A stretch of 64,000 bases of DNA from Candidatus Doudnabacteria bacterium (GTDB lineage Bacteria; Patescibacteriota; JAQUNI01). Shown piece after piece: positions 1,744 through 55,684 of this stretch. A model generated the notes under the pieces. That model searched no databases. It was not told where the DNA came from and saw only the letters and a list, made by a program, of their open reading frames with translations. Position 1 is the stretch's first letter. Every line of letters begins with the position of its first letter. A program made the position numbers and the translations under genes. The stretch is taken from contig JBAZQX010000001.1 of NCBI GenBank assembly GCA_041644975.1, forward strand, positions 39,274 to 103,273, in the 5' to 3' direction.

Positions 1744-2649
1744 TTATTTCCATTGGTAAGCCCGGAAAGTCCAATTGATTAATCCCTTGGATTCCTGCCA
1801 TTCATTTTTGCTGTTCATTACAACCGTGATAATTTCATGGCCTCTTTTATCCGAAGCTACCTCAATAAGGCAATATCCGGCATTATCCGTGAATCCTGTT
1901 TTACCGCCAATAATATTGAGATAAGAGCTTTGCAATAATTTGTTGCTGTTTTTAAGGAAACGGTCGCGGATATTTGTTGTAAAACCAATAGTGGGAGTAT
2001 TAATGATTTCACGAAAAACTTTTTTCTCTAGAGCATAACGAGTAATCTCGGCCAGATCGTAAGCCGAGGAGTAATGCCCTTCGGCATCAATACCATGCGT
2101 ATTTTTAAAATGGGAATCCTTTAATCCAAGGATGCGCGCTTTTTGGTTCATTAAATCCACGAATTTTGTTTCACTTCCCGCAATGTATTCCCCCAAAGCT
2201 ACTCCCGCGTCATTAGCAGAAGACATTAGAAGACCGCGAAGCAGATTGTAAACCGAGATTTTTTCTCCAGGAGCAAGGCGCATATGCGCGCCTTGCGGCT
2301 GCACGTATGCCGGGCCTTTTCCTACGGTTACGATATCATCGGGTTGCGGGGAGTTATCCATGACTGTTACGGCGGTCATAATTTTAGTCAAGCTCGCTTG
2401 CGGCAGTTTTTGGTGGATGTTCTTCGCGAAGAGCACCTTGCCCGATTCCTTATCCAAAACAATGGCGGCTGTCGCAGTCATTTTTACTCCCAGCATCTTC
2501 GGATTTTTGATTGGTCCTTTTGATGTTTGCGCCGCCAGTATTTCTTGCTTCACGGGTTCTTTCGCTTGGAGCGGCAGACGCGCGCCTTGCGCCGGCATCA
2601 GATAATTAGAAGCGAGGAGAGTGATAAGACTGGTAAATTGAAGTAACAT
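1744..2649 (-). CDS. D-alanyl-D-alanine carboxypeptidase (peptidase S11, low-molecular-weight PBP)
   Basis: It has an N-terminal signal peptide and the SLTK (SxxK), SAND (SxN) and KTGFT (KTG) active-site triad. Confidence 0.8.
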   Translation of the reverse strand: MLLQFTSLITLLASNYLMPAQGARLPLQAKEPVKQEILAAQTSKGPIKNPKMLGVKMTATAAIVLDKESGKVLFAKNIHQKLPQASLTKIMTAVTVMDNSPQPDDIVTVGKGPAYVQPQGAHMRLAPGEKISVYNLLRGLLMSSANDAGVALGEYIAGSETKFVDLMNQKARILGLKDSHFKNTHGIDAEGHYSSAYDLAEITRYALEKKVFREIINTPTIGFTTNIRDRFLKNSNKLLQSSYLNIIGGKTGFTDNAGYCLIEVASDKRGHEIITVVMNSKNEWQESKGLINWTFRAYQWK

Positions 2650-8755: not shown

Positions 8756-9952
8756 TTGCTTAATTGTTCAATTATTAAATTACCTATGCGCATCCTTTTT
8801 ATTACGCGCAAGCATCCCCCTACTATTGGTGGTATGCAGAACCTGTCCTATAACCTTATTCAAAATTTTCTGAAGCAAGGCAGAGAAAGGGGCGACCAGA
8901 TAGAGACAATTATTCTTAACAAGAGTCAGTGGCATTTATTTTGGTGGTTTCCTTATGCTTTATTCTTAACTTTGGTTAAAGCAAGGACAGTGGATATTGT
9001 TCATTTAGGCGATCCTGTCATTTTTTTAATTGGTTTTTTAGCGCGCGTGTTTTACCATAAAGCCGTCGCGGTAACGATTCATGGTTTGGATGTAACCTTT
9101 AATCTCTTTTTATACCAGTGGTATTTAAAACTTTTTGGTCGAAAGTTTGATCGTTATATTTGCATTTCCAGCTATGCCCGGGAAGAAGCGCGAAAGGTAG
9201 GTTTTTCTCCTTGCGTGGTGATTCCTGTTGGCGTGGACAGCAAGAAGTGCAAAGTGCCTGCCCGCCATCGCTTCGCCCGCCCGCAACGCCTTGCGGCTAG
9301 CATGGCGGGCGCGGCTTCAGGCGAGGCGGGCGGGCAAAGTGCAAAGTGCAAAGTTTTGGAAAAACATTTTTTACAGAAACATTTTTTGCCAATTGCTAGT
9401 TTTAAGTTATTAACCGTAGGGCGGTTGGTAAAACGTAAAGGAGTATTTTGGTTTATTCAAGAAGTTATGCCATGTTTACCCAAAGAGATTACTTATTTAG
9501 TAGTGGGAGAAGGGCCGGAACGTGAGAGAATTAAAATCTTGATTCAAGAGAGAGGTTTAGAGGAAAGAGTTTATCTCTTAGGTAAAGTTTCCGAAGAGGA
9601 TTTAAAAACAGTTTATAGCCTCGCTGATTTGTTTATTATGCCTAATATTAAGGTCCAAGGGGATGTTGAAGGGTTTGGACTTGTGGCTGTGGAAGCGGCT
9701 CAAAATGGTCTACCTGTCATTGCCGCGGGTATTGAAGGCATCCGTGATGCGGTGGTTTCGGGACGTAATGGTATTTTGGTGGAGTCAGAAAACCCTGATG
9801 CTTTTCGGAAGCAGATCTTGGAGTTCTTAAGGAACCAGGAATACAGAAAGAGTTTTGGTTATCAAGCCGCGCAATTCACGATGGAAACCTATGATTGGCA
9901 AATAATCGCCAAGCGGTATTACGAGGAATTTTTAAGGGTAATTAGTAGTTAG
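8756..9952 (+). CDS. GT4-family (GT-B) glycosyltransferase carrying an in-frame GC-rich insertion. The likely start is the Met at ~8786.
   Basis: It has VIPVGVD ... VGRLVKRKG ... EGFGLVAVEAAQNGLPVIA (EX7E). There is a ~30-aa GC-encoded insert between the GVD and VGRL motifs. Confidence 0.75.
   Translation: MLNCSIIKLPMRILFITRKHPPTIGGMQNLSYNLIQNFLKQGRERGDQIETIILNKSQWHLFWWFPYALFLTLVKARTVDIVHLGDPVIFLIGFLARVFYHKAVAVTIHGLDVTFNLFLYQWYLKLFGRKFDRYICISSYAREEARKVGFSPCVVIPVGVDSKKCKVPARHRFARPQRLAASMAGAASGEAGGQSAKCKVLEKHFLQKHFLPIASFKLLTVGRLVKRKGVFWFIQEVMPCLPKEITYLVVGEGPERERIKILIQERGLEERVYLLGKVSEEDLKTVYSLADLFIMPNIKVQGDVEGFGLVAVEAAQNGLPVIAAGIEGIRDAVVSGRNGILVESENPDAFRKQILEFLRNQEYRKSFGYQAAQFTMETYDWQIIAKRYYEEFLRVISS
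9258..9334. repeat. GC-rich palindromic mini-element, family A (core CCTGCCCGCCATCGCTTCGC...CTTCAGGCGAGGCGGGCGGG), lying inside a coding sequence
   Basis: It is >75% GC in an AT-rich gene. It is flanked by the direct repeat caaagtgc (~9250-9257 and ~9335-9342). The core reappears at ~62324-62363. Confidence 0.7.
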
Positions 9953-9971
9953 TAATCAGTAATCAGTAACT

Positions 9972-11078: not shown

Positions 11079-13133
11079 TTGCTTATGAATATGAATTCCT
11101 TAAATCGTCCTAAAAATTTAGAAGATACCATTCAGGAATTTTTTCTGATATTTATTATTTTTTTCTTTATTCTTTTAAGTTTTGCCATTTTAGGGATCTT
11201 TTTCAGATGGTTGGTTTTTTTGGCATTCTTTTTGTTGTTGATGGTGATAGGAGTGAGAATTTGGTATTTGAGGTCCTTCCGTCATATTTTTATTTCGCGG
11301 TGGCACAAGGGAATCTTGTTGCTTTTAATCATTGTAACTTTGTTTAATGCCTTTTATCACCACAGTATTCCTTCTTCGCGGGATAATATCGGGTATTTAA
11401 CCGCCGGCGTGATGCTGGCTCGCCAAGGTAAGTTGCATTTTCAGGATATAATTTCTCGTCCTTATCACCCTTATCGCGAAGTTAATTTAGGTCAAGACGT
11501 GGTGACCTCGCAGTTTTTGCCGGGTTATAACGCCTTTTTAGGATTTTGGTATCACTTGGGGGGTTTAAACTTAGTCTTTTGGGGCAACGCCGTTTTATTT
11601 TTTCTTTTTTTGGTATGCCTTTATGCCGTGGCTTGCAAAATTACAAGACAAAGAAAAATAGCCTTATTATCTTTATTTTTCACGATTACATTTTTCGCTT
11701 TTTTATGGTTTCCGCGGCGGACAAATTCCGAGAATTTATTTATGGTTTTGATTTGGTTTGCAATCTGGCTTTTTTTAAGGGGCATAGAGACTAAAAGTTT
11801 ACGGCGGCTTATTTGGGGTTTCTTGCCGGTTTCTCTCACGATTTTAGTGCGGGGTGAGGGTTTACTTTATCTGGCGACTTTCACTTTAGCTTTTTTATTC
11901 GCGCTTTGGAAACTAAAAAGGCAGATTAAAAAAGAAAGGTTATCCTTTTTAAATTTTCTTTTTCCATTAGCTACTATAATTCTCTTTCTCCGTTATGTTG
12001 TTCTCTATAATGGGAGTTATATCTGGGGTCACGCCGTGTCTATTTTGTACAATTTGGGTGATTTTATTGTCCTCTGGATTCCGGTTAATCTTTTAACTCT
12101 CACTCGTTATGTTGTTCTTTATAAAGTTTTTGTTTTTTTGGGTTTGATTTTAGCCGCGGGAATAATTTACGCGGTCTATTGTTTTAGAATGCGCATCCCA
12201 GTATTCGTCCGGAAATTTTCCGGAGGATTGAATAAGGGACAATTTTTGGCTGCCATAGTTTTAACTTTTCTACTCGCTTTTAACCTTATTCTAATCTCTC
12301 ATTATCATTGGCAGGAATTCGTGAATTGGCAGACCTATCGGATTCAGTATGTTTTTATTATTTTAGGAAAATACTTTTTGCTTCCTTATTTTCTTGTTTT
12401 TTTAATAAGACTTTGGGAGCCACGGTTTTTAGGGAAAGAGGTCTATTATGTCGCTTTAATTTTGCTGCCCATTATCATTTTTATTCTTGACCCTTTCGTG
12501 GGATTGGATCAGCCTTGGTTTTTAAGGCGTTTTTACCCCACCCTGATTCCGTTCCTTTTTGTTTTGGCCGCCTGGGGATTATTTAATTTAAGACTGGGAA
12601 AGAAGGTCAGAGCGACTATCATTGTTTTGCTTTTAGCGATGAACCTTTGGGTTGCGTCACCGGTGCTGTTTTTCCGAGAATATCAAGGAGTGCAAAAGGA
12701 ATTGGAAAATTTAGCTTCCCGTTTTGAAAAGGATAGTTTAATTTTGATGGATCCGGGTTGGCAGTGGCAGCAGTGGGGTTACGCTTTGCATTATATTTAT
12801 GGTCGTGACGTTTTGCCCGAGTATGATCGGTTTTCGGCAGAAGAGATGGAAAAACTCATCCAAGATTATGGGCAAGTTTATGTCATCAGCAAAAAAGGGC
12901 CAGAGGAGGAGAATATCATTGATTATCCTGGTTTTCCTCGGGAGAAACTGCGGTACCTTGATGAAGTCAGGCTTTTTTATCCTGTGCTATTAAGCACGAC
13001 CAATCTTACTGATTATATTCAAGACAAGGAAACCGCGGTCAGCACAGTGATTCTTCTGCAAAAGTATCAAGAGGCTTTGCCGCGAGAAAAGGATATTGAG
13101 GATGTTACACTTTATATATATCGGTACAAGTAA
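11079..13133 (+). CDS. polytopic membrane protein, GT-C-like (PMT_2/ArnT-like) with a ~180-aa C-terminal soluble domain
   Basis: It has ~12 TM helices, a first extracytoplasmic loop with SSRDN and a C-terminal globular domain. The family call is tentative. Confidence 0.4.
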   Translation: MLMNMNSLNRPKNLEDTIQEFFLIFIIFFFILLSFAILGIFFRWLVFLAFFLLLMVIGVRIWYLRSFRHIFISRWHKGILLLLIIVTLFNAFYHHSIPSSRDNIGYLTAGVMLARQGKLHFQDIISRPYHPYREVNLGQDVVTSQFLPGYNAFLGFWYHLGGLNLVFWGNAVLFFLFLVCLYAVACKITRQRKIALLSLFFTITFFAFLWFPRRTNSENLFMVLIWFAIWLFLRGIETKSLRRLIWGFLPVSLTILVRGEGLLYLATFTLAFLFALWKLKRQIKKERLSFLNFLFPLATIILFLRYVVLYNGSYIWGHAVSILYNLGDFIVLWIPVNLLTLTRYVVLYKVFVFLGLILAAGIIYAVYCFRMRIPVFVRKFSGGLNKGQFLAAIVLTFLLAFNLILISHYHWQEFVNWQTYRIQYVFIILGKYFLLPYFLVFLIRLWEPRFLGKEVYYVALILLPIIIFILDPFVGLDQPWFLRRFYPTLIPFLFVLAAWGLFNLRLGKKVRATIIVLLLAMNLWVASPVLFFREYQGVQKELENLASRFEKDSLILMDPGWQWQQWGYALHYIYGRDVLPEYDRFSAEEMEKLIQDYGQVYVISKKGPEEENIIDYPGFPREKLRYLDEVRLFYPVLLSTTNLTDYIQDKETAVSTVILLQKYQEALPREKDIEDVTLYIYRYK

Positions 13134-14631: not shown

Positions 14632-14667
14632 TCGTTAATCTACCCATACCCTAGAGTATTAAATCAT

Positions 14668-16041: not shown

Positions 16042-17205
16042 ATGCTGATCGGCATTGATGCCTCGCGTGGTTTCTTAAAAAAACGCACGGGAGTGGAAGA
16101 ATATTCTTATCAAATCGTGCAGGCGTTAACAAAAGTTGATTCTCAAAATCAATATATTTTGTATTTAAACGGCCAAGAGAACAAGGAAGTGGCGCGAGGG
16201 ATTGCGTGGCCTTCAAATTTTAAATTTAAAAATATCCCTTTTCCAAGGCTTTGGGTGCATCTAGCTTTGTGTTTAATGGCTTGGCGGGATAAGCTTGATG
16301 TTTTGTTTATCCCGGCGCAGGCAATGCCAATTTTTTACCCGCGGAAAACTGTTGTTACTTTGCATGGTTTGGAATATGAGCATTACCCAGAAAGTTATTC
16401 TGTTTTTCGGCGTTTTTACCTCCGTTTTACAACGAAATTTAGCTTAAAGCATGCGGCGAAGATTATTGCTGTTTCGGAGAACACAGAAAAGGATTTGATT
16501 AAAATGTATGGTGGAGATGCGGAGAGAATTAAAGTGGTCTATCATGGTTTTAATATTATATTTCCCTCCCCCTCCATCTCCCCCTCGGGCAGGGGGAGTG
16601 ATAGCCCTCCCCTTTCCAAGGGGAGGTTGGGAGGGGTTCTGGAAATTAAAGACGGGGAAAATGATCAGTTATTTATTTTAACCATTGGCCGTTTGGAAGC
16701 GCGCAAGAATATTGTTAATTTAATTCGCGCTTTTGAACTGATAAAAAGAGAAGGCTGGACCGGGAAGTTGGTTTTAGTCGGTCAGCAGGGTTATGGTTAC
16801 ACAGAGATTAAGAGAGCGATACAAGATTCAGCCTATCAAGAAGATATTATTGAGAAAGGCTTTGTGAGTGAAGAAGAAAAATGGCAGATTTTGCAATCCG
16901 CCACGGCATTTGTTTTTCCTTCTTTTTATGAGGGTTTTGGCATGCCGCTTTTAGAAGCGTTCGCCGCGGATGTGCCGGTTGCGGTATCCAACACTTCTTC
17001 TTTGCCTGAAATTGGAGGAGACGCTTGCGTTTATTTTAATCCCGATAATGTTGACGATATAACGCGAAAGATAAGAGAGGTTTTAGAGAATAAAAACCTG
17101 CGTCAAAATTTGATCCAAAAGGGTCAAATGCGTTTAGCTAATTTTGGCTGGCAAAAGTGCGCTCTAGAGACCTTATTAATATTAGAAATAAGTCACCACA
17201 CTTAG
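16042..17205 (+). CDS. GT4-family glycosyltransferase carrying an in-frame GC-rich insertion
   Basis: It has VVYHGFN ... ILTIGRLEARKN ... EGFGMPLLEAFAADVPV (EX7E). An extra ~25 aa (FPSPSISPSGRGSDSPPLSKGRLGGV) is encoded by a GC-rich palindromic element. Confidence 0.75.
   Translation: MLIGIDASRGFLKKRTGVEEYSYQIVQALTKVDSQNQYILYLNGQENKEVARGIAWPSNFKFKNIPFPRLWVHLALCLMAWRDKLDVLFIPAQAMPIFYPRKTVVTLHGLEYEHYPESYSVFRRFYLRFTTKFSLKHAAKIIAVSENTEKDLIKMYGGDAERIKVVYHGFNIIFPSPSISPSGRGSDSPPLSKGRLGGVLEIKDGENDQLFILTIGRLEARKNIVNLIRAFELIKREGWTGKLVLVGQQGYGYTEIKRAIQDSAYQEDIIEKGFVSEEEKWQILQSATAFVFPSFYEGFGMPLLEAFAADVPVAVSNTSSLPEIGGDACVYFNPDNVDDITRKIREVLENKNLRQNLIQKGQMRLANFGWQKCALETLLILEISHHT
16563..16638. repeat. GC-rich palindromic mini-element, family B (CTCCCCC-N-GGGGGAG hairpins; contains gggcagggggagtg), lying inside a coding sequence
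   Basis: The hairpins are ctccccctcgggcagggggag and cctcccctttccaaggggagg. A 14-mer is shared with ~62414-62427. Confidence 0.7.
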
Positions 17206-19340: not shown

Positions 19341-19425
19341 AGTTGACTCCTCCCCTGATAAGGGGAGGACGGGAGGGGTTATTCGGAAGAGATAACCCCC
19401 TCTAACTCCCCCTTATCAGGGGGAG
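19341..19425. repeat. GC-rich palindromic mini-element, family B, at a gene junction (ctcccctgataaggggag ... gggaggggttattcggaagagataaccccctc ... ctcccccttatcagggggag)
   Basis: It is nested inverted repeats. It supplies the GGAGGAG Shine-Dalgarno sequence 7 nt upstream of the 18465..19340 start and encodes the last ~15 codons and the stop of 19379..20122. Confidence 0.7.
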
Positions 19426-20122
19426 AACTCAATCTTTTTAAAATATACTCCCCTATCACCACTAGGGGCGCAATCCAGAGGTTAAGTTCAGTCAGCTTTT
19501 GTAAGTGTTCCTCAAACGCCTTTGGAGTCACGGTGAAGCGATAATCCGTTTGGCGGCTCGCGACTAAATGATAGGATTCAATCAGCCAGAGATTTTTCCT
19601 AGCCGCTCTCTTTGCCTCTTTATTTAAATCGTTCCAATCCGTTTTTTGATTAGGCACAAAGGATTTGAGGTTGAAAAAGTCAATCGGCGGGATATGATTT
19701 AATTCTTCTTCCACGCCTCTGCCAGCAAAATAATATTTTTTAGCCGTTTCAATTACTCTTTTATCAAAAGCGCCTCCTGGGTAAACAATGGTTTTAGCTT
19801 TCAGAATTTCCTGGGATTCCTTGAGCTCTTTTTCTAGATCCGCATCGGAAGCGTTTTTTAAATTCACGTGGTTAATGCTGTGGCTGGCGATTTCGTGGCC
19901 GAGGGCTTTAATCTTCTTGGCAATTTCCAAGGAAGCCGCGGGTATTTTTTCAGTTTTTTCAATTGCTCGCGGATTAGTCGCGAAAGCAAAAGTGGCTTTG
20001 ATGTTATATTTTTTTAGGATAGGCAGAACATTCACCAATGTCTCTTTATAACCGTCATCAAAAACAAGGGAGCACGCCCCCCGTTTTTGAGAATTTGATT
20101 TTTGAGAAAAGATTTTAAACAT
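19379..20122 (-). CDS. polysaccharide deacetylase (CE4 / NodB homology domain)
   Basis: It has LVFDDGYKETL, HSINHVNL and the NodB motif pattern. The C-terminal tail PPDKGELEGVISSE is encoded by the GC repeat. Confidence 0.7.
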   Translation of the reverse strand: MFKIFSQKSNSQKRGACSLVFDDGYKETLVNVLPILKKYNIKATFAFATNPRAIEKTEKIPAASLEIAKKIKALGHEIASHSINHVNLKNASDADLEKELKESQEILKAKTIVYPGGAFDKRVIETAKKYYFAGRGVEEELNHIPPIDFFNLKSFVPNQKTDWNDLNKEAKRAARKNLWLIESYHLVASRQTDYRFTVTPKAFEEHLQKLTELNLWIAPLVVIGEYILKRLSSPPDKGELEGVISSE

Positions 20123-24167: not shown

Positions 24168-26645
24168 TCACTGGTTTTTCCTCTTCATTTTTCCAATAAG
24201 TAAAACACAAAGAATTAGGATGAGACTTGTAGCACTAATTAAAAGTCCCCCTTTAAACCAATTTTGAGGTTCATATTCCAGAGTAAGTTCATTATTTGTT
24301 AATCCTGCGGGGTCAATATAAAAGCCGTTAATTACGGAATATAAAGGAAAACTTTTAATTTCATTTTGGGGGTGAAGAAATATTTTTCGGAAATATTCTT
24401 TTAATCCATTTTGCTTTAAGTCTGTTTTGGGGGTTATGTGCCACCGCTGGTCATAACTTTCAGCAAAAGCAACTACAAAAGGATGATTGGGTTTATTCTG
24501 AAGATCTATTTTAATTTTAGTAGGGTTAATTTTTTGATATTGCAGATGAGGCAGGGAAGGAGTTTCTTTCTCTTCTATTTTTTCCTGTTTTTCTTCCAAG
24601 AATAAAGCATCAATAATATTGATGTCGCTTTCACGGAAGAGTTTAGAATTACTAATTTCAAACCAGGAGTCCTTTTCAGGGTTTGTTTTTGCTTTAAATT
24701 CTATTTTTATATAGTAGGTATTATCAGGAGTGCCAAAAAAGTGGGAAATCTTTTGTGGTTCTAGGTTGTTCTTTCGGTTTTCCATAAAATATTCCACTTT
24801 AAAGGCAGTACGTTGGGTTTGGAGGTCATAGTCTTTGCCATAGAATAAGACACGGGCATCTAAATTTGCTAAATTTTGACCACATAGTTGATACTCTAGA
24901 TAAAAACCCTGATTTTCTTCTACTTGAATTGCATTGGTAATCAGTCTACCTTCTCTATTTGGATTCAGACCATTTTTGGGAATATCAACCATGATACTTT
25001 GAGGTATAGAGCTTTGTTTAGAGGTATTTGATCCCTTGGGGGATTCCTCATTATTACTAAATTTTAGATTTTCAGGATCCAAAATAAAAAAGTTCTTTGT
25101 GGTTAGAAAATTACGCTCTTCTACATTTGCGAGGAGAGAAATCTGATTGTCTGCGGTAAAATATTCTTCACCAATTTGATACCATTTGATTAAGTCCAAG
25201 AAGTAATGCTCAAGGCTATATTGTTTTTTGCCGAAGGTTAGATTTAAAATCCGTGGATTTTCTTTAGCCAGATTTTCATAAGAGATTATTTCTTCTTTTT
25301 GATTTTGGAGTTTATTGATTTGATCGGGATCATTTTTAAATCTGATGAGAACAGTGTATTCATCCCCTTTGGGCAGCTTTAAATTTAAGGGTTCTGTCAT
25401 TTCTGTGGGGTTAATTTTTTGGAGATAAGTTACCGGGGTTTGGGTGATGATTTCTTGAGCTTGCTTTTTGTAACTTTGATATTTTTCCTCTGGCACTAGT
25501 GCTAAAAGATTAACCGCATTAAAACCCACTAGGTTTTGAATAATCAAAAAATGTTTACCTTTTGCGACTTTGCCTAAAGGTATTGTGTTAGTTGTAAATT
25601 TATTGTTAAGATCTAAAGTTTGAATTATTTTTTCCTTATTGCCTTTTTTGATTTTTAATTTGCCCCCATGATTGTTCTGGAAATAACGTACTGTGAGAAT
25701 ATAATCTGTATCTTCAGAGATATAAAATGGGACTTTAATTTCCATATCTTTATCCTCGGAATAAACTAAGCCTTTCCCATAATCGAAATCCCAGTTTGAA
25801 ACTTTGAGTTGGTCAATTACGCGATGCCATTCACCATGCAGAGGTTCTTCTGTGGAAGCTTTTTGCCATTCCCCTATTTTTTCATTGGTTGAGGGAGCGA
25901 TTTCAACAAGATATTGGTTCTCAATCAAGGAAAATATTAAATCTTCAAAGTTTGCATTGTTAAAAATGATATTTTGGAATGTTTGGTTTTTAAAACTATG
26001 CATCAAACCTGGTTCCTGATTTAGGAAAATTAAGCCATTTTGGACAGGGTCAAAATCAGTTTTGGAATTGAGAAGATCAAGAGTTTCCATCCCTCCGATG
26101 ACAGGGATGACTTTTTTTGGTATCCAGACAAGGGGTGCATAATTTTTATTCTCAAAGACTTCTAAATATTCTTCCTGTTTAATTTTTTTTAATCCCGGAT
26201 CTCGTTGCAGGCTTGCTAATAAGCTTGGGCTGTATTCACCCGGTAAATCCTTGCGCAAGATAAGGTATTTGGTATTTAAGATGTCAAAAAATTTGTTGAT
26301 GTTAGGAAAATAGCCAGTGATGCTTTGGAGGAAGAGAAAGTGTAACTTTGAATAAACTGTCTCTGGTCTGATGTTTGGTTTAGCCGAAGAGAGAGTAATA
26401 AAGTCATTTACCTCATGGTCGCGCGCCCAGTCCAAGATTGCAGCGTTATATTGCGCCGGCAGCCAGATAACCTTAAATTCTTCTTCTTGATGAGCCAGCC
26501 AAGTATTTAATCGGAAGAAATCCAATGGAATTTCTATAGGCACGAGATTATGGAAGAGAATTCTATCAGCGGCGCCAAAGAAGTAAATCCAGAAGAACAA
26601 AAGAAATAAACTAAGAATAAGATATAGAGAATATTTTTTAAACAT
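24168..26645 (-). CDS. YfhO-family protein, extracytoplasmic C-terminal part (N-terminal signal anchor, ~770-aa exported region, C-terminal TM plus lysine-rich tail)
   Basis: The C-terminal block FAESYDQRW..VINGFYID..LTLEYEPQ..GLLIS..TM..KKK parallels the C-termini of the 826-aa and 877-aa YfhO-like paralogs in this window. Confidence 0.5.
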   Translation of the reverse strand: MFKKYSLYLILSLFLLFFWIYFFGAADRILFHNLVPIEIPLDFFRLNTWLAHQEEEFKVIWLPAQYNAAILDWARDHEVNDFITLSSAKPNIRPETVYSKLHFLFLQSITGYFPNINKFFDILNTKYLILRKDLPGEYSPSLLASLQRDPGLKKIKQEEYLEVFENKNYAPLVWIPKKVIPVIGGMETLDLLNSKTDFDPVQNGLIFLNQEPGLMHSFKNQTFQNIIFNNANFEDLIFSLIENQYLVEIAPSTNEKIGEWQKASTEEPLHGEWHRVIDQLKVSNWDFDYGKGLVYSEDKDMEIKVPFYISEDTDYILTVRYFQNNHGGKLKIKKGNKEKIIQTLDLNNKFTTNTIPLGKVAKGKHFLIIQNLVGFNAVNLLALVPEEKYQSYKKQAQEIITQTPVTYLQKINPTEMTEPLNLKLPKGDEYTVLIRFKNDPDQINKLQNQKEEIISYENLAKENPRILNLTFGKKQYSLEHYFLDLIKWYQIGEEYFTADNQISLLANVEERNFLTTKNFFILDPENLKFSNNEESPKGSNTSKQSSIPQSIMVDIPKNGLNPNREGRLITNAIQVEENQGFYLEYQLCGQNLANLDARVLFYGKDYDLQTQRTAFKVEYFMENRKNNLEPQKISHFFGTPDNTYYIKIEFKAKTNPEKDSWFEISNSKLFRESDINIIDALFLEEKQEKIEEKETPSLPHLQYQKINPTKIKIDLQNKPNHPFVVAFAESYDQRWHITPKTDLKQNGLKEYFRKIFLHPQNEIKSFPLYSVINGFYIDPAGLTNNELTLEYEPQNWFKGGLLISATSLILILCVLLIGKMKRKNQ

Positions 26646-28326
26646 ATGTGTTATTTTTAACTTTTTGCAACTTCTTTTTCATTTTTCTAATCTTGGAATT
26701 TAATTTTTCAATTTTGAGCTTTTTTTTCTGTGCTTTTTTAGATAAAAAAAGATCAATTTTTTGCCTAAATTCATCTTTAAAGGCCACTCTTGAAAATAAA
26801 AAAGCCAATAAAAAACTATAAGAAAAAGCAAGCAAGCCGTTTATTCGGGAGGATTCCCGAAAGAGCCAGCCAAAATTTTTAAAATAGGGAATGTCAAAAA
26901 GAATTTTTTGATATAAAGTGTAATGCCAAATCGGCATCGTAGACAGAATTGTTGCGAAGACCCCCAAGAGAGAGAAAAAGACTGTGTATTTGTTTCGGAA
27001 AGATGGAAAGAGAGGCAGGAAGAGGAGCAAAGGAAGGATAAAAATTAATTTTCGGAAAATAAAATTTATAATCAAACTGTTTGTCTCTTCACCATTTAGA
27101 GAGAGGGTGAAAAATAAAGTTTTCAGGGGTTCTTGGGGTTTTTCAAAATAGTCTGATGTAAGCATATAATCAGGTGCGTTAGGTTTATTTTCCGAGAGGC
27201 TAATTTGCAAGTAGGGATACAGCCAGTACGCTCCTAGAGTTAAAAAAAATAAAACAAAGATTAAAAGGTAACCCAAATTTCGCGCTAACATTTTGAAGAT
27301 CAGCTTGCAATTTTGTTTTAGGAAAGATTTTTGCACCCAGATCGCGCTTTCTATTAAGATGAAAATTCCCAGCATAATAAAGTTATAAACTAAATAATGT
27401 GGAGAGAAGGAGATAAAATTGAAAAGGAGCGCTAAAATCAGTAGTAGTAGTATTTTTTTTTGCCTTTTAAATTTTAAAAAGACAAGTAGAACCAAGGGTG
27501 TGAGAGTATAACCAATGAAATGGTAGAAGTGGAAGATCCGATTCAGGGCGTAAGGGTTAAATAAATAGAAGGCAGTGGCTAGCAGAGAGGCTAAGTTAAT
27601 ATGTTGCTTTTCTCTTATGACGGCTTGAAAAATCGTTTGCATTAAGAAATAACTAGAGAAGGCGCCACAGAGTAAGATTTCTAAGAGAATAAGTTTAATG
27701 GTTAAATCGCTGGGTAGATTTAGAAGCTGGGTAAATATAGTATTAAACAGACTGATGGGAAAAATATTAGGAGCCAAGGGCCGGTTAAAACTGCCATAAT
27801 CGTTCCATAAAAACCAGACATTCCCCAAAACAGTTTGATTATTTATTGGGAAGTTGAGGTCTCCTGCTTCAATGTATCCTTTTGTAACTAGGACTTTATG
27901 AAAAGGGATCAAGATTAGAAAAATGAGGATGAAAATAGTTATACTGCGTTTATCATCTATTTTTTTAAAGATATTTATAGGCAGACGTTTTTTTTTGCTT
28001 AAGAATATCTTTAATTGAGTAAATATAGTGACGAATAAAAAGAGTAAAGCATAGGCGGCAGCTATATTTGCTAAGTATTCATCTTTTAAGATTGAAAAGA
28101 TTGCTGTGAACACGAGAAGTATCAGTCCGCAGATCAGAGGAATTTTATCCGAAATATTTAGAATTAAGAAGGTTAGAAGGGTACCCCAAAAAAGAAAAGC
28201 ATATAAAGAAGCATTTAAAAGAAAGAGAACAAGAAAGGTTAAAAAAAGCCAGGCTAAATAATAAATTTGAGGCTGGTTTTTTTTGAAGTTGACAATTCCA
28301 TTTTTCAATCTTGAAATAACACCCAT
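26638..28326 (-). CDS. YfhO-family protein, N-terminal polytopic membrane part; 8-nt overlap in a different frame with 24168..26645 (a split or frameshifted gene is possible)
   Basis: It has ~12 TM helices and an overall YfhO-like layout. ATG and TAA are arranged as ATGTTTAA at the junction. Confidence 0.5.
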   Translation of the reverse strand: MGVISRLKNGIVNFKKNQPQIYYLAWLFLTFLVLFLLNASLYAFLFWGTLLTFLILNISDKIPLICGLILLVFTAIFSILKDEYLANIAAAYALLFLFVTIFTQLKIFLSKKKRLPINIFKKIDDKRSITIFILIFLILIPFHKVLVTKGYIEAGDLNFPINNQTVLGNVWFLWNDYGSFNRPLAPNIFPISLFNTIFTQLLNLPSDLTIKLILLEILLCGAFSSYFLMQTIFQAVIREKQHINLASLLATAFYLFNPYALNRIFHFYHFIGYTLTPLVLLVFLKFKRQKKILLLLILALLFNFISFSPHYLVYNFIMLGIFILIESAIWVQKSFLKQNCKLIFKMLARNLGYLLIFVLFFLTLGAYWLYPYLQISLSENKPNAPDYMLTSDYFEKPQEPLKTLFFTLSLNGEETNSLIINFIFRKLIFILPLLLFLPLFPSFRNKYTVFFSLLGVFATILSTMPIWHYTLYQKILFDIPYFKNFGWLFRESSRINGLLAFSYSFLLAFLFSRVAFKDEFRQKIDLFLSKKAQKKKLKIEKLNSKIRKMKKKLQKVKNNTYV

Positions 28327-32197: not shown

Positions 32198-34831
32198 TTA
32201 TGGTTTTATTATATCATTTTTTACTTTTTTGGCTAGGATCCAGACAAGATAGCCGCAGGAGATGATAAAGAAGATACTAGATATAGTAAGACCAAGGTAG
32301 AATAATCTTTGGGGCCAGAATTCTACAGTTAGTGCAAAGTCATAACTACCATCCTGATTTTTAATGCAATTGCTTGGCTGCTCGCAGATTTTTTGAACGT
32401 CAAGCCACCAGGAATTAGCATAACCATTAACAATAAAATGTTGATCTTGAGCGAGGGGCTTCCTTCCCCAAGTTTCCCAGAAGGGTCCCCCTTTCAAATT
32501 TTCGTTTTGGATTGTATCTTGATAATTTTTAGAGATAAAAGCAATCTTATATTTTTCTAAATGATCTAGTTCCTTTTTTTCACTATTCAAAAATTGATAA
32601 TATTTGATCTTTTTTTCCCGACCGTCACCAAGGGTGGAAACCCAACCTTTTTCAATAAAGTGTGAGACTTCTTCTTTTTGCGCTTGATTTTCCTCGTTAC
32701 CCTCTAGAATTTTATAATCTTGAAGCAGTGAATCAAAGGAGTTGTTGTTAGAATAAGACAAATCTATATTTCTTTTGATTTGATATATTTTCCAATCTTT
32801 AGAAAAAGTTTCACTTAAAATGAGGGGAAAATTCTCTCTCGCTTTATGAATAAAAACAATATATTTGGTGGGATTTATCTTTTTGAATTCCAGGATTGGT
32901 TTTTCATTAATTCGCGTGGGTAAAGAACTGGTTTTTTGAGATTGTTCTTTGCTATCCGCAAGATAAATCGCGGTTGGTTTCAGGAGGTTTTGGGAGGATA
33001 GAACTTCGGGCAGATCTTTGGTGAATTGTGACGAAACCTTAATCTCTTCAGGAACATATAAATGAGGTAGAAAATAAACAGAGGAAACTTCATAGAGCTC
33101 AAGGGGGCCAAAAGATTGTACCAGATTAATGTCTTTTTCTTTTTCAAGATTTTCCTTAATTTCGCGCGGAGAATCCGAATTTTCATAAAATTGATCATCA
33201 ACATCATTTTCCAGAATTATGTATTGCATGTTAAAAAAGCCTGCAAGTTTCAATAAGGTATTGAAAAAGTCTTTCTGTTGTCTAATGCTGTAGAGCATTT
33301 GGTAAATAGGGTCAGAGATGCTTTTTTGGTAGGTGGCAAAGAATTTTTCTCCTAGATAGTAATATAAAGGATCTACTCCCTGATAATTCCATTTATAGGG
33401 AGTGAAATAGGTCCATTGCATAGGTAAGGCATAGGCGCGGAAAGCCATCTGTTTTTTATTTAAATAGGTGCTAATTTCGCGATAATAGAGAGGAATTGAT
33501 GTTTTGTTCGTGGCCAGGATGCCACTTTTATAATCTGGCAAGACTTGACCTTGCCAGAAAGGAAGAGCACACAGATGGATTACAAAAAGAGTTAGGAGAG
33601 CAAAAGCAAAGGCGTACTTCAATTTTATTTTTTCCATAATCCTATGGATTGCAATCCCTAGCAAGAGGCTAAAGGCAAAAATAAAGATCATGCCGATTTT
33701 ATCCAGAGGATTACGGAACATTGAAAAGGTCTCAAAGTGACTGAATAAAAATTTATAGATTGATCCTAAAGGTGGGTTGGGGCCATAGAGTAGGGCAAAA
33801 CTGACTAGACTAAGAATGCCGAAGATGAGCGTATATTTTTTATATTTATTCTTAGCGAAAGCAGAATAAGCCAAAATCGGGATTATGAATCCTAAAAGGA
33901 TGAAGAATGGCTGTTCATAAAGTGAACCGTAGGGATAGTAGAGATATCCTTTAAACTTTCCCCAAAATCCCCAGTGTCCCAAAAAGCGAAGACCATCGGC
34001 CATTTTGTAAAAAGAGTTAACCACGGCGATATGTTTGAGATTAGTGTCCGCCATTTGCGCAATCTCTTCTTGTTCATTAAAGAAAGCAGCGGTGTAGGGC
34101 AAGATAATGAGGGACCAGGTAAGAAATAAGGAGCCGCTTAAGAGAAGGAAATGCTGTATTTGTTTTTTTAGATCAACCTTCTTCCTTTGCTTGGATAGCA
34201 AAAGATTCATTAAAAAATAATAGACTACGATGCCAAAGATTAGGAATAAATAAACTGGATTATCTGCCGCGGGTGAGGCGAGAAAAGCGGTCAGCACTAG
34301 GAGGGCGCAGTCTTTTTTGGTAGGACGTTTTAAGATGCGGATGCAGAAGAGCAGAATGAGAGGCAAAAAGCCATAAGCGAAGAGCACCATTGCGCGTGGC
34401 CAAAGGAACAAAAAAGAAAAAACATTAAACATATAAAGATTTGCCGCCAAGAAGGCAGCCAATTCCCTTAATCGTCCTTTCAAAATATGCCTCATCAAAA
34501 TAAAGAAGGCAAAACCCGCGGTTAAAAGCCAGTAGGAAAAAAGTAACCGTTCAATTTCTAGAAGCGGTAGATTGATTTTATGGAGAAGATAAATCGGTAA
34601 TTGGTAAGCGGGCAGTAGAGCTGTACCTCGATCTTGAGCATAGCCCAGATAGACAGGATTCCAGGTAAAGATTCTGGTGCGCAGGGCATCCTCTGGAGAA
34701 AAAGTAAAAGCAAAATCTCCGATAGAAAGCCATAGTGTGTTTAACCAAAAAAAAGGCGCTAGTGCCTCCAAGAAGATTAAAATGAGGAATATTTTAGTTT
34801 GGTGTTTTTGAAGATATTGGTGAATGATCAT
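32198..34831 (-). CDS. YfhO-family GT-C-like membrane protein (N-terminal ~560-aa polytopic domain, extracytoplasmic domain, C-terminal TM)
   Basis: The architecture and the C-terminal block LSETFSKDW..IVNGYANSWWLD..LTVEFWPQ..TM are shared with the other YfhO-like paralogs. Confidence 0.6.
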   Translation of the reverse strand: MIIHQYLQKHQTKIFLILIFLEALAPFFWLNTLWLSIGDFAFTFSPEDALRTRIFTWNPVYLGYAQDRGTALLPAYQLPIYLLHKINLPLLEIERLLFSYWLLTAGFAFFILMRHILKGRLRELAAFLAANLYMFNVFSFLFLWPRAMVLFAYGFLPLILLFCIRILKRPTKKDCALLVLTAFLASPAADNPVYLFLIFGIVVYYFLMNLLLSKQRKKVDLKKQIQHFLLLSGSLFLTWSLIILPYTAAFFNEQEEIAQMADTNLKHIAVVNSFYKMADGLRFLGHWGFWGKFKGYLYYPYGSLYEQPFFILLGFIIPILAYSAFAKNKYKKYTLIFGILSLVSFALLYGPNPPLGSIYKFLFSHFETFSMFRNPLDKIGMIFIFAFSLLLGIAIHRIMEKIKLKYAFAFALLTLFVIHLCALPFWQGQVLPDYKSGILATNKTSIPLYYREISTYLNKKQMAFRAYALPMQWTYFTPYKWNYQGVDPLYYYLGEKFFATYQKSISDPIYQMLYSIRQQKDFFNTLLKLAGFFNMQYIILENDVDDQFYENSDSPREIKENLEKEKDINLVQSFGPLELYEVSSVYFLPHLYVPEEIKVSSQFTKDLPEVLSSQNLLKPTAIYLADSKEQSQKTSSLPTRINEKPILEFKKINPTKYIVFIHKARENFPLILSETFSKDWKIYQIKRNIDLSYSNNNSFDSLLQDYKILEGNEENQAQKEEVSHFIEKGWVSTLGDGREKKIKYYQFLNSEKKELDHLEKYKIAFISKNYQDTIQNENLKGGPFWETWGRKPLAQDQHFIVNGYANSWWLDVQKICEQPSNCIKNQDGSYDFALTVEFWPQRLFYLGLTISSIFFIISCGYLVWILAKKVKNDIIKP

Positions 34832-37907: not shown

Positions 37908-39017
37908 TTATTTATTGATAATTTCAAAGGTTTCGGACCAGATTTCTAAACCTTCCCTGAATTTTTGTAAAAATGTGATCTCTTCGGGACCGAATAACTT
38001 ATCATTACTGAACTCTTGATTAAGATCTCTGACAATTTCTTTGAAGCAACCATGATAGTCTTGTTGGGTGAGTCTAATTTTGCGTAAAATATCCGTAAAG
38101 CGATCCGTAAGTTTGCTTCCCTCTCGTTCTTTATCTAAGTCTTTCCAAATATCATGAGGATTCCTTATTTGACGTACCAGAGGATAACCACAGGTAACAA
38201 AATGTCCTAGATGATCAGCAACTTTTTTCACAATATAGCTTGCCCAGATATCGTCATATCTTCCTATATAAGGACTTAAGAAATAAGCAGGTAATACTTC
38301 GCGGGAGAGTGCTGTATTTTGGGAGTTAAATGGAGACCAAGTTCCTTTGCCCAAAGCAGCCGTAGGCGCGTATTCTGCTTTCATCCATGTGGCTCGTACG
38401 GGATAATTTAGGCGGCTTACTGCATCCACATCAGGATCGTCTAGCCATAAACCAGCATTTACTACTACCTTACCTTTAATTTTTTCCTTAATGAAGTTAG
38501 ATTCCCCTGCCCTACCTTTTTGAGATGAGGGATAACCGCGATGATAGAAACAATTATTGTTAGCTTCTTGAAGGAACTCACAAATGTTGAGCCAGCCTGT
38601 TTTTGAACTATAAGATATGAGTTCTCTTTCCATTCCTATAATACTATGGCTACCCACAAAATCTTGTTCAGAGATTACAAGGTTATCATCATCAATGGTA
38701 ATAATAATATCTGCCCCGCGTTCATAGGCAAAGAGCAGACCTATATTACGTCTTTGGATAGAGTTAAAAGGTAAGTGCTCCCAGAGTTTAGGAAAGCGCT
38801 CAAGATAATTAAATTGGATATCAATGTCTTGATAATAGACGGGATAGTTAAATTTGGTTTGTAGCATAGAACAAAATTTGTGGGTATCCGGTGGACTTTT
38901 TTTATCGCCAATAACTACAAAGAATAGATCTTGATGTCCGTAGTCTTGAGCGTTTTTTGCATAGTCTTTGAGTAAGGTGGGAATATTGATGGTTGTGGTA
39001 ATAATTGCAGTTTTCAT
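37908..39017 (-). CDS. putative GT-A nucleotide-diphospho-sugar transferase, RGP/GT75-like
   Basis: It has the N-terminal IITTTINIP and IIITIDDDN (a DDD motif as in reversibly glycosylated polypeptides). The call is weak. Confidence 0.3.
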   Translation of the reverse strand: MKTAIITTTINIPTLLKDYAKNAQDYGHQDLFFVVIGDKKSPPDTHKFCSMLQTKFNYPVYYQDIDIQFNYLERFPKLWEHLPFNSIQRRNIGLLFAYERGADIIITIDDDNLVISEQDFVGSHSIIGMERELISYSSKTGWLNICEFLQEANNNCFYHRGYPSSQKGRAGESNFIKEKIKGKVVVNAGLWLDDPDVDAVSRLNYPVRATWMKAEYAPTAALGKGTWSPFNSQNTALSREVLPAYFLSPYIGRYDDIWASYIVKKVADHLGHFVTCGYPLVRQIRNPHDIWKDLDKEREGSKLTDRFTDILRKIRLTQQDYHGCFKEIVRDLNQEFSNDKLFGPEEITFLQKFREGLEIWSETFEIINK

Positions 39018-41411: not shown

Positions 41412-43178
41412 CTAAAAATTTATTTTAAGGTTTGCTTTCGGAGTTAATTTTTTCCACTCGCGGAAGGTTAGAAATGTAATAATCAAAAATATGAGGAAGA
41501 ATAAAAATAAACCGCTCCCTATTTGCAAGGCTAAGTGTTTGGAAATAGCTTTTTGGATATATTCGCTAGCAGCATATTTACCAGTAAAAGTAAGGGTATT
41601 GGTTAAAAAATAAAGAGTGAGAATAATTCCAGATAAAACCTTGCACTGGGAAAGCAAGAAATCAAGGGCTAAAAATAAGATCATCAAAGCAGTAAAGTAC
41701 AGATACGCCAGAGGCCCGTGGTAATGATAATAGCCAATCAAGCAAAGGTAAAAGATGAGAGGAAAGATTAAAAAAGCAATAGTGTATTTTTTGTATTTTT
41801 GCCAAGAGGATATAGCGCCATAAATAGTAAATGGAAATAAGAAAACACCTACTGCTCCCCAGAGACAGAATTCAGAAATTAGTTCCATAATTTTCCCTAA
41901 ATTATAGCCGGGAGGTAACATACGCAATTGTGCCAAGGGATTGGGGACAAAGAAAGTCATAAAATTGTAAAATTTATTGGCAATAATTGTTTGTGGAGAT
42001 GTGTGGGTTAAGCTTGAAAATATATTGCGAGGATCTGTCACAAGTTGATCGCTGTTTTGAGCTACAGGATATAAATATATTGAAAGAGCATTATTTTTCA
42101 ATCCTTCATGGAGAAGTATCCAATAGAACCAAGGGAGGAAGAAGATAACGGAAATCAGTAATAAATACTTCAAAGAGAGGAGTATCTTTTTTAGTTCTCT
42201 TGTTTTCAAATAAACAAAAAGATAAATTGCCAAAATGCCAATGATTGAGCAGGTGTGGGTAAAAAGAGATAAAGTAGCGATTGTGCCGATCAAGAAATAG
42301 TCAGCAGCCTTTTTGTTATCCTTTAAGAAAAGATAAAGTAAAGTAAATAAAAAATAGAGCGTTAAAATTTTCTGTGGCGAATAAATAGTCCAACGCAGCA
42401 TAAAAGGGGCGGATAAGGCGAAGAGGCAGCCAATTTTTGCTGTTTTGGGACTGAAGAGTTTAATGAGCAAAAAATAAGCAGGAATAATATAGGTTATATC
42501 AATGGCGAAGCAAAGCATCTGGTAAATAAAAGGATCGTTGCCAAAGATTTTTAAAAAAGGAATAGAGATGATTGCTAAATAAGGCGTGCGAGTTCCAAGC
42601 TGCCAACCACCGACCAGAAAAGACACAGCTTCCCCAGAATAGAGTTTATGGATTAAGGCTTGGGCCACGCCATACATCATATAATAATCAATCTGACCGC
42701 GATAGTGTTTGATACTATTTAGATAAGATGGAAGACCCGGAAAAAACATCTCGGGAACAATGCTGATTATTACCATCATCGTTCCGATGAGTAAAAAGAT
42801 CAGAGCGAGATAAACCCAAACAGGATGGTCAATTTGTTGGTAAAGCTTAAGGAACCATTTATTTTTTAGAAAGAAGAATAGACTAATAAGGCTCAAAACA
42901 AAATAAAGTATACTCCACAGAACAATTTGACCAGAGATGAGACCCAAAAGTGAAAAGATAAAAACGATTAATGTGCCGCACGCAAAACTTAGAATAACTT
43001 TGTCCTGTTCTTTAAAATTTTTGCAAAGTAGATTTAATATTGTATAGCCTGGTAAAAATATAGCAAGAAGAAAAGCTAAAGCAGGCACAAAATATTTCCA
43101 AGCGCCGCTTAAAATACTGGTTAATAGGATTATTAAGACACAGAGACTTAAAGCTGATTTCTTTAATATTATCTTCAT
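41412..43178 (-). CDS. polytopic membrane protein (GT-C-like glycosyltransferase or polymerase candidate)
   Basis: The 588-aa protein has ~14 TM helices. It lies next to the DPM1-like GT2 and the flippase-like protein. Confidence 0.3.
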   Translation of the reverse strand: MKIILKKSALSLCVLIILLTSILSGAWKYFVPALAFLLAIFLPGYTILNLLCKNFKEQDKVILSFACGTLIVFIFSLLGLISGQIVLWSILYFVLSLISLFFFLKNKWFLKLYQQIDHPVWVYLALIFLLIGTMMVIISIVPEMFFPGLPSYLNSIKHYRGQIDYYMMYGVAQALIHKLYSGEAVSFLVGGWQLGTRTPYLAIISIPFLKIFGNDPFIYQMLCFAIDITYIIPAYFLLIKLFSPKTAKIGCLFALSAPFMLRWTIYSPQKILTLYFLFTLLYLFLKDNKKAADYFLIGTIATLSLFTHTCSIIGILAIYLFVYLKTRELKKILLSLKYLLLISVIFFLPWFYWILLHEGLKNNALSIYLYPVAQNSDQLVTDPRNIFSSLTHTSPQTIIANKFYNFMTFFVPNPLAQLRMLPPGYNLGKIMELISEFCLWGAVGVFLFPFTIYGAISSWQKYKKYTIAFLIFPLIFYLCLIGYYHYHGPLAYLYFTALMILFLALDFLLSQCKVLSGIILTLYFLTNTLTFTGKYAASEYIQKAISKHLALQIGSGLFLFFLIFLIITFLTFREWKKLTPKANLKINF

Positions 43179-54610: not shown

Positions 54611-55684
54611 CTATTTGGCAGTGAAGGATTTAAAAATCTTTTTCTTATTTTTTTTCAAGATAAATTTTTGGATTACTACATATCCGTAGGCATATAGAAA
54701 CATCAAACAAACTAAAGGATGCATAAACCAGGCTGCATCTTTTTTTTTCCGAAATCCGCGGCAGGCATCTAAAAAGGGTTTCAATATTGTGAGGGTAAAA
54801 AATATATATTCTACTAATAAAAGATTATCCTTGATATTCTTACTATCGTATATTTTATATCTTCTTCTGTCAACAAGTTTGATGCTATGTTTTTGGAAAT
54901 AATCAATTCTTTTTTTGATAAGCCTGCGGAACGAATCACCCGTTTCATGAATAATGGTATTTTTAACGAAAGCGATATTTTGGTAGCCCAATTTAACTAA
55001 ATCAAAGATAATATCAATATGGAAAAGGTCTTCGGGAATAGTTAAAACTTTTTCTAGCAGCTTTCTTCTCACAAGGAAACCATTGCTTCCAACAGTAGGT
55101 AGATCTTGATCAAATTTTACTTTGTAATATATGCCTTGATCGTGAGCACAGCCCTTTAATTTCCAAGATGAATAATAGTAGGGCAAACGGTCCTGCTTTT
55201 TCAAATAGAGAGCCACTGGATCGTTAGCGCCAAATAGCGCACAATAGCGGTTGAATAGAGTATCATTTTTGCGATAAGCGTAACGTAAGGTTTGGGAAGC
55301 AAAAATTTCAGAATCATTGAGGAAGGGTGTCACCATATCTTTAAACCAAGTTTGATAAGGCAAGAGATTGTCTGTATCAATAATTGCTACGATTTCATTG
55401 CGTGCCTTTTTAATTCCCCAAAAGCGACGTGCTTCTTGATTGTCCTGATATCCTCCCTCAATAAATTCAGCTTTATATTTGCGGGCTATTTCTTGACTTG
55501 TATCAGTTGAACCGCCATCAGTAACTAAAATTTCTATCTTCTCTTGGGAGTAGTCTTGGCTACGAATACTCTGGAGGCATTTCTCTAGTTTAGGTGCGTT
55601 ATTGAAGTTGGCGATAACTACAGATAAAGAAAGCCAGCAAGGCTCTGAGATTCGGTGTTTTATTGGAGATGAATTAATTTCCAT
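54611..55684 (-). CDS. GT2-family glycosyltransferase with C-terminal TM helices
   Basis: It has LSVVIANFNNAPKLEKCL, LVTDGGSTD and a DxD region, plus two C-terminal TM helices. Confidence 0.7.
   Translation of the reverse strand: MEINSSPIKHRISEPCWLSLSVVIANFNNAPKLEKCLQSIRSQDYSQEKIEILVTDGGSTDTSQEIARKYKAEFIEGGYQDNQEARRFWGIKKARNEIVAIIDTDNLLPYQTWFKDMVTPFLNDSEIFASQTLRYAYRKNDTLFNRYCALFGANDPVALYLKKQDRLPYYYSSWKLKGCAHDQGIYYKVKFDQDLPTVGSNGFLVRRKLLEKVLTIPEDLFHIDIIFDLVKLGYQNIAFVKNTIIHETGDSFRRLIKKRIDYFQKHSIKLVDRRRYKIYDSKNIKDNLLLVEYIFFTLTILKPFLDACRGFRKKKDAAWFMHPLVCLMFLYAYGYVVIQKFILKKNKKKIFKSFTAK

Follow-up and report, generated by a model that had tools for sequence, protein, structure and literature searches.

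The 64,000-nt stretch of DNA analysed here (the window) comes from a metagenome-assembled genome of Candidatus Doudnabacteria (Patescibacteria, candidate phyla radiation), a tiny-genome groundwater bacterium. Its GC content is 38.6%, and positions 1-64000 read approximately as one surface-glycan biosynthesis cluster, with many glycosyltransferase genes of families GT4 and GT2, NeuB, DegT, epimerases, a flippase and PMT_2- and YfhO-like membrane proteins; exceptions are few, for example ScpB, a D-Ala-D-Ala carboxypeptidase and an EF-Tu-like GTPase. One of the GT4 genes, 16042..17205, contains a GC-rich palindromic insert at 16563-16638, which an earlier note on this DNA had described as two "family B" hairpins inserted in-frame. 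We located this insert and found a GC content of 65%, two perfect stems and an intact frame. As argued below, it is probably an inverted pair of triplex-type repeats, carried as a tolerated passenger in a disordered linker of a GT-B enzyme, at an unstable site. The gene and the parts of the insert are as follows.

16042..17205, plus strand: GT4 / GT-B glycosyltransferase gene hosting the insert, an intact open reading frame (ORF) of 387 aa.
16563..16638, plus strand: the insert, read from the sequence as an inverted, tails-outward dimer of two intrastrand-triplex-type units; predicted residues ~174-199.
16567..16598, minus strand: unit 1, called by a mirror-tail finder with 0 mismatches.
16599..16605, plus strand: the 7-nt spacer between the units, TGATAGC, from the sequence.
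16606..16638, plus strand: unit 2, from the sequence and the mirror-tail finder.

Public data contain the exact protein of 16042..17205, listed as a glycosyltransferase of Candidatus Doudnabacteria and carrying the Pfam domains Glycos_transf_1 and Glyco_transf_4. An AlphaFold2 (AF2) model built on 26 homologs has two Rossmann-like domains and a mean predicted local distance difference test score (pLDDT) of 88. The pLDDT falls below 50 only at residues 175-207, between the last strand of the N-terminal domain (163-165) and the first strand of the C-terminal domain (211-215), and the insert, at codons ~174-199, lies in this interdomain linker of the GT-B model. A sequence search of the PDB with the same protein returned generic GT-B matches to the C-terminal domain only and was not used for mapping. 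The 76-nt insert is in-frame and encodes FPSPSISPSGRGSDSPPLSKGRLGGV between YHGFN and ILTIGRLEARKN, the position given earlier and now read from the ORF translation. A codon-position analysis, which the earlier note had proposed, sets the insert apart from its gene: its GC content is 0.65 overall and 0.50/0.73/0.73 at the three codon positions, versus 0.40 and 0.48/0.33/0.38 for the remaining gene. Frames 0 and +1 are open across the element and frame +2 meets a TGA, leaving two of the three forward frames open.

The perfect stems are 8 bp (16578-16598) and 9 bp (16606-16626) long. The two hairpins of the earlier description are therefore present, but they are not simple hairpins, since each unit carries a mirror tail and belongs to a known triplex class. 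On the plus strand, unit 1 consists of a tail complement TCCCCCTC (16567-16574), a linker (16575-16577), an arm CTCCCCCT (16578-16585), the loop CGGGC (16586-16590) and an arm AGGGGGAG (16591-16598). Read on the minus strand it becomes CTCCCCCT/GCCCG/AGGGGGAG/ATG/GAGGGGGA, in which the tail GAGGGGGA exactly mirrors the arm AGGGGGAG. Unit 2 has a pyrimidine arm CCTCCCCTT (16606-16614), the loop TCC, a purine arm AAGGGGAGG (16618-16626), the linker TTG and a tail GGAGGGGTT (16630-16638) that mirrors the purine arm such that seven G*G-C/A*A-T triads and two T*A-T triads are possible. In both units the mirror is the reverse, not the reverse complement, of the purine arm, and the common design can be written as 5'-CYYCYCCT, a loop of 3-5 nt, AGGRGRRG, NN and RGRRGRGGTT.

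This sequence design identifies family B as two potential intrastrand-triplex units in inverted arrangement, of the BoxC/PIT/TMECO class (Hoyne et al. 2000; Holder et al. 2015, PMC4666352). Holder et al. described intrastrand triplex motifs whose Escherichia coli member is CCCTCNCCC-N3-6-GGGNGAGGG-N3-GGGNGAGGG, and the isolated E. coli single strand forms a class II purine-motif triplex in vitro, as judged by circular dichroism and nuclear magnetic resonance (PMC4666352). The published criteria for the class (ITxF, PMC4666352) are a stem of at least 6-8 nt, a second loop of 1-6 nt and a mirroring purine block with at most one mismatch; the window units have Watson-Crick arms and a mirror tail, with four units showing 0-1 mismatch. 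The likeness extends from the layout (a C-rich arm, a 3-6-nt loop, a G-rich arm, a 3-nt loop and a second G-rich block) to the G*G-C/A*A-T triads, the occurrence as single units or close inverted mixed-type pairs, the G/C-rich islands, the hypervariability of loci between relatives and the lack of associated transposon genes. In E. coli, inverted pairs always join a type A to a type B unit (PMC4666352), and the window dimers likewise pair different types, CTCCCCC with CCTCCCC. The differences are that the arms here are CCTCCCCTT and CTCCCCCT, whereas E. coli has CCCTCNCCC; that the host is a member of the candidate phyla radiation with 39% GC; and that this copy lies in-frame in a gene, whereas the motif is always intergenic in E. 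coli (PMC4666352). The motifs are abundant in Enterobacteria and Cyanobacteria, and their loci are much more variable between strains than control spacers (PMC4666352). Compared with the homopurine mirror repeats of H-DNA, the purine arm and tail here likewise form a homopurine mirror repeat; however, a complementary pyrimidine arm lies on the same strand, so that the structure is possible from one strand, whereas H-DNA involves supercoiled duplex.

Hairpins between the domain halves could instead work in the mRNA, by pausing ribosomes for co-translational folding or by modulating mRNA stability or termination. The dimer has a stable single-strand fold (-25 kcal/mol with DNA parameters, z = -3.1), and the element sits exactly between the domains, both of which speak for such a role. 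Yet a hairpin function leaves the mirror tail unexplained, copies occur in either orientation relative to genes, and Rfam 15 offers no match: the element scores at best 24 bits against a gathering threshold of 87, and the whole window has 0 matches. Earlier work on E. coli, as summarised in PMC4666352, found PIT elements without promoter or terminator activity and without effect on RNA polymerase, and purine-motif triplexes are stated in the same source not to form in RNA. We regard an mRNA-level role as very unlikely.

The insert has relatives elsewhere in the window. Hairpins of the pattern CTCCCC-N3-14-GGGGAG occur five times (at 16578, 16607, 19350, 19406 and 62403), versus 0.01 expected from shuffles. 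Perfect GC-rich hairpins with a stem of at least 7 bp number seven, versus 0.12 in shuffles, and four of the seven belong to family B. The mirror-tail finder, whose only requirements are a pyrimidine arm, its complement and a mirror tail and which is independent of the first pattern, returned exactly four units in the window, the two insert units and those at 19349-19380 and 19394-19425, and 0 in 100 shuffles. By blastn-short, the 14-mer GGGCAGGGGGAGTG is common to the insert and 62414-62427, and the right half of the insert matches 19360-19380 at 19 of 21 positions, which bears out the shared 14-mer and the likeness to 19341-19425 that had been noted earlier. These copies, together with those of a second palindrome, family A, are as follows.

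19349..19380, plus strand: CCTCCCC-type unit in the spacer of a GT2 and a deacetylase gene (mirror-tail finder).
19394..19425, minus strand: CTCCCCC-type partner unit, inverted, tails inward (mirror-tail finder).
62387..62427, minus strand: variant unit in the spacer of convergent genes, with 6-bp arms CTCCCC/GGGGAG, an 11-nt loop and the tail complement CCCCCTC (sequence).
62297..62318, plus strand: degenerate hairpin of the family B kind (CCTCCCC…GGGAGG), followed directly by a family A hairpin (sequence).
62323..62362, plus strand: family A hairpin, short form, between two family B pieces (two 21-nt exact matches to 9256-9276 and 9314-9334).
9256..9334, plus strand: in-frame family A palindrome of the paralogous GT4 gene 8756..9952 (alignment).

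The unit at 19349-19380 is intergenic, and its partner at 19394-19425 overlaps the 3' end of the deacetylase ORF 19379..20122, for which it provides the last 15 codons and the stop (…SPPDKGELEGVISSE*). The syntenic spacer of the orthologous locus L002 is without the 19349-19425 copy, and the deacetylase has 233 aa there versus 247 aa here. The family A insert of 8756..9952 aligns to the same interdomain linker, directly before the (I/V)GRL strand, which agrees with the earlier statement that the two inserts occupy one structural site. It is bracketed by direct caaagtg heptamer runs (9245-9257 and 9337-9354; predicted peptide KCKV…SAKCKV), which look like a duplicated target or a slippage tract. 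A family A hairpin also stands at the junction of hairpin and tail of a family B unit both in the window (62319-62362) and in the ortholog L009 (771-808), which suggests that family A enters family B units at a preferred point.

We then looked beyond the window with a unit-pattern scan, taking one genome per species, which returned at least 120 stretches. Hosts among the matches listed include Gallionellaceae, Sideroxydans, Omnitrophota, Cyanobacteria, Nitrospirota, Planctomycetota, Poribacteria, Bacteroidota, Methylococcaceae and Patescibacteria. Near-identical 32-mers are present in unrelated phyla, and the window unit 19349-19380 equals Gallionella units except for its 2-nt linker. In 137 of the 141 listed units the three variable hairpin positions are complementary, and in 135 the tail mirrors the purine arm (shuffled mean 38, maximum 57); the listed units comprise five arm types, each with a matching tail. 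An exact mirror tail follows 149 asymmetric hairpins, versus 30 for a direct-repeat control. Dimers among the matches listed are oriented tails-outward in 67 cases versus 13, with a median gap of 13 nt for the tails-outward form, and they most often join CCTCCCC to a CTCCCCC-type arm (12 TCCCCCT and 2 CTCCCCC), as in the window.

A palindromic repeat mobilised by a transposase, either a repetitive extragenic palindromic (REP) sequence or REPIN moved by a REP-associated tyrosine transposase (RAYT) or a MITE (miniature inverted-repeat transposable element), would make the mirror tail an incidental low-complexity feature. The inverted doublets do resemble REPINs, the copy at 19349-19425 is polymorphic for presence and absence, and other palindromes nest inside the element. 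REPs, bacterial interspersed mosaic elements (BIMEs) and REPINs (PMC3116915, PMC3733652) are likewise short GC-rich palindromes that occur as inverted doublets, in many copies and mostly between genes. However, the GTAG/CGTC tag is not seen beside any window copy, no Y1 (RAYT) or other transposase is encoded among the 40 window ORFs scanned with Pfam, and the units carry an extra mirror tail, which covaries with the arm far above shuffles. In addition, near-identical sequences in unrelated phyla disagree with the lineage specificity of REPs. No conserved flanks, terminal inverted repeats or target duplications were found in the 141 listed units, whose upstream consensus only extends the pyrimidine arm, and flanks at the linker sites are neither conserved nor duplicated in the manner of a MITE. 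We therefore consider transposase-driven mobility unlikely. As for other vectors, a scan of viral contigs gave only 28 stretches and no sign of a phage vector. DUF559 (a Vsr-like endonuclease) was detected by tblastn at 6 of 148 loci and is adjacent to a unit in three (L031 1780-2149, L141 14106-14545 and L156 179-618); in L031 the unit is fused to the DUF559 C-terminus, and two viral contigs have a unit ~110 nt downstream. As a partner nuclease DUF559 is a weak lead, too weak to use.

To follow the site itself, we compared the linker DNA of the window gene with that of nine close orthologs whose proteins are 64-84% identical. In homologs at 40-48% identity the linker is ~20 aa long and carries no element, compared with 41 aa in the window; in the alignment against GT4 homologs that the earlier note had called for, the insert is thus not conserved in distant homologs. 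The linkers of the close orthologs range from 19 to 82 aa, and those that bear the element have a GC content of 0.51-0.67 versus 0.37-0.40 for the remaining gene. The ortholog linkers hold the following.

L001: decayed copy of the same dimer, one hairpin compensatorily changed to CCCCCCCT/AGGGGGGG, the other partly broken.
L002, right side: unit with shifted arms CCCCTCC/GGAGGGG, a damaged tail GGGAGG and the peptide PLLSKEG(S/L)(R/G)EV.
L002, left side: CTCCCCC-type unit and the remnant of a further hairpin.
L007: like L002, with an intact tail GGGGAGG and a further ~110-nt insert.
L011: right unit with the shifted arms of L002 and L007; tail GGGGAGG.
L009: family B unit with a family A hairpin nested in it, between its tail and its own hairpin.
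L006: palindrome of another kind, with a 10-bp stem, z = -4.1.
L008 and L012: unrelated, unstructured linker sequence.
L005: 19-residue linker without an element.

The ~110-nt insert of L007 (1450-1570) lies inside the left family B hairpin and has short palindromes of its own (cttcgagtctgaagactc…), and the linker reaches 82 residues there. The linkers of L008 and L012 were also considered as a third palindrome family; this was rejected, as their folding is no better than that of shuffles (z ~0).

The junctions of these inserts carry a record of their origin. At the right junction GGTTCT is common to all six genes that bear family B, followed by G in five and by T in L011, and at the left junction CTCCCAC is common to four of the six; GGTTCT lies outside the element consensus of the 141 listed units. 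Since the junctions are shared, these sequences speak for a single old insertion that was later remodelled, lost or replaced, and less for repeated insertion at the site. In a tree built without the linker, from whose node supports we used only that of {L005, L011, L012} (100%), the genes form two clades and B-type inserts occur in both. L007, L009 and L011, with proteins of 71-78% identity, share identical right-unit arms and tail but differ in loops and linkers, and L002 has the identical arms with its damaged tail. Identical arms around differing loops suggest either that the fold is constrained or that other copies have converted the unit. At the protein level the peptide is SPPLSKGRLGGV here versus PLLSKEGLGEV in the orthologs, and the shifted arms keep the fold. 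The earlier note had taken the inserts as independent events that suggested recurrent tolerance; tolerance is borne out by the varied ortholog versions and by the nested family A hairpin of L009, whereas the shared junctions make many independent family B hits the less favoured account. The comparison of variants that it had also suggested gave differing ortholog versions and an empty one (L005); the exact junction between the units, GGGGGAGTGATAGCCCTCCCC, had 0 matches when metagenomes were scanned for it, so that no further copy or strain variant of the exact dimer was found.

The same comparison bears on whether the insert is an artefact of assembly or binning, in which a low-complexity GC-rich repeat would have produced a chimeric junction. 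Contigs can be wrongly joined at short GC-rich repeats, and the exact protein was found on one contig only. The frame is intact, though, with both flanks in one well-modelled protein, and independent assemblies from other samples have homologous inserts at the same site; L001, an independent assembly whose protein is 84% identical, has the decayed element there. An artefact is extremely unlikely.

Units also reside in other proteins. Of the 141 listed units, 39 are flanked on each side by at least 60 codons of open frame, and each of nine such units checked with Pfam lies in a real protein with domains flanking the unit on both sides. The proteins include two MmeI-type methyltransferases, an N6/N4 DNA methylase, the glycyl-tRNA synthetase beta subunit (GlyS), AcrB, a Ser/Thr kinase and a Mur ligase. 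In a DNA polymerase I from a Patescibacteria genome the unit stands between the 5'-3' exonuclease and polymerase domains, and in an NAD-dependent DNA ligase (LigA) it splits the adenylation domain. The units occur in either orientation relative to genes, with predicted peptides of the type PPLSKGGxGGV or, from the other strand, TSPSPSLEGGG. Because units lie inside unrelated proteins, in-frame residence is general to the class and not peculiar to glycosyltransferases.

This finding weighs on a further explanation, raised in part by the earlier note as selection for linker variation in surface-glycan enzymes, in which a Pro/Ser/Gly-rich flexible or variable linker is selected because it tunes domain closure, localisation or antigenic variation. 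The element is in-frame in 6 of 10 orthologous genes, and a second GT4 gene of the cluster (8756..9952) has an insert at the same site, as one might expect of such a linker. On the other side, the same DNA is found in intergenic spacers and, in other phyla, inside unrelated proteins, disorder is predicted for the segment, the peptide differs among orthologs while the DNA arms remain complementary, and one ortholog and all distant homologs do without the element. The other GT4 genes of the cluster show no linker variation: in three neighbouring GT4 genes no linker indels were found among the syntenic loci. Given the lack of indels in these neighbours and the presence of the class in unrelated housekeeping genes, tolerance plus repeat-driven instability fits, and the claim of selection is not supported; we judge a selected linker to be quite unlikely.

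We thus return to the insert as a passenger repeat pair and to how it would behave. The class is a widespread, structure-defined and apparently non-coding repeat. Its pyrimidine arm would pair with the purine arm as a hairpin, and the strand could then fold back a second time, so that the purine tail would lie antiparallel on the hairpin and supply the third strand of a purine-motif (class II) triplex, with G*G-C and A*A-T triads. One dimer lies in the DNA for the disordered linker between the Rossmann domains, which would tolerate Pro/Ser/Gly-rich residues, the repeat being read as ~25 extra linker residues. With two of three frames open and a tolerant linker, the gene would stay intact. The repeat may in turn destabilise its site: folded single strands could provoke stalling or slippage, other copies could convert it, and further palindromes could nest in it. 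Such instability would lead to the hypervariable length and sequence seen among orthologs. By analogy with the E. coli member, the window sequence would form a triplex; instability is the presumed cause of the turnover, and the insert peptide presumably has no function of its own.

Several observations weigh against this interpretation. By ordinary pairing the dimer also adopts a three-way fold with its two tails paired to one another (z = -3.1), so a plain cruciform or hairpin role is also possible. The E. coli member showed no triplex in duplex DNA or by in-vivo dimethyl sulfate footprinting (PMC4666352), and the strict TMECO consensus has 0 matches in the window. About five arm types underlie the covariation, and each may have spread as a lineage, leaving few independent events. 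Finally, the 40 window ORFs scanned with Pfam include no mobilising gene.

The repeat class itself has been described before, and Rickettsia has in-frame palindromic repeats, according to the account in PMC10969869. As described there, Rickettsia palindromic elements (RPEs) also reside in-frame in genes at fold-compatible positions, an analogy of behaviour only: RPEs are ~100-150 bp long, are described from Rickettsia only, encode a conserved peptide and are given no mirror-tail or triplex design, whereas the unit here is ~32 nt and the dimer 72 nt, of different sequence and cross-phylum. What is new is the candidate-phyla-radiation host for the class, the in-frame residence of a triplex-type repeat, and an ortholog series with turnover and with nesting of a second repeat family at one linker site. 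We found no paper on in-frame residence of triplex-type repeats in a literature search that was incomplete, and the exact element strings and peptides gave 0 matches in the literature searched.

Other features of the window may be recorded briefly. A conserved intergenic motif of ~85 nt occurs in three copies (39085-39170, 51742-51830 and 55734-55820), each immediately upstream, on the minus strand, of a gene in the glycan cluster (37911..39017, 49972..51546 and 54614..55684); it has no Rfam match and may be a shared leader or regulatory element. Spacers before several genes hold 7-8-nt tandem periodic repeats of the CATTGTTCAA and GTAGTTAGTAATCAG types (1594-1634, 8743-8781, 14662-14694; 2658-2682, 3631-3655, 9945-9969; 15963-16027), and runs of aattgcg and aattcac form an inverted pair in the spacer upstream of the host gene 16042..17205. 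A perfect 9-bp GC palindrome, GCAAGGCGC-ATATGC-GCGCCTTGC, at 2273-2296 lies inside the D-Ala-D-Ala carboxypeptidase ORF 1747..2649 (minus strand) and may be another in-frame palindrome; 2270-2318 and 2561-2603 in the same carboxypeptidase region are also GC-rich. Several large window ORFs lack a Pfam match (11079..13130, 24171..26645, 26641..28326, 32201..34831 and 41415..43178).

A bolder view, possible but doubtful, is that triplex units across phyla are all one class of small DNA, mobile or self-propagating, that their covariation reflects in-vivo selection for a single-strand triplex, and that they routinely colonise coding sequence in-frame as unstable nests entered by palindromes. If this were true, the near-identical 32-mers in Doudnabacteria, Gallionellaceae and Omnitrophota would mean horizontal spread among groundwater organisms. 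The narrower reading of a tolerated passenger repeat pair already ties a GC-rich in-frame insert to a biophysically characterised repeat class, and it gives a testable structure in the form of an oligonucleotide triplex. It would extend the class to Patescibacteria and to coding sequence, where units lengthen and diversify protein linkers, and the ortholog series would serve as a natural time-course of site destabilisation, with intact, decayed, enlarged, nested, replaced and absent states. For annotation, recurrent PPLxKGxxGGV-like peptides in predicted proteins would be repeat-derived linkers, not motifs.

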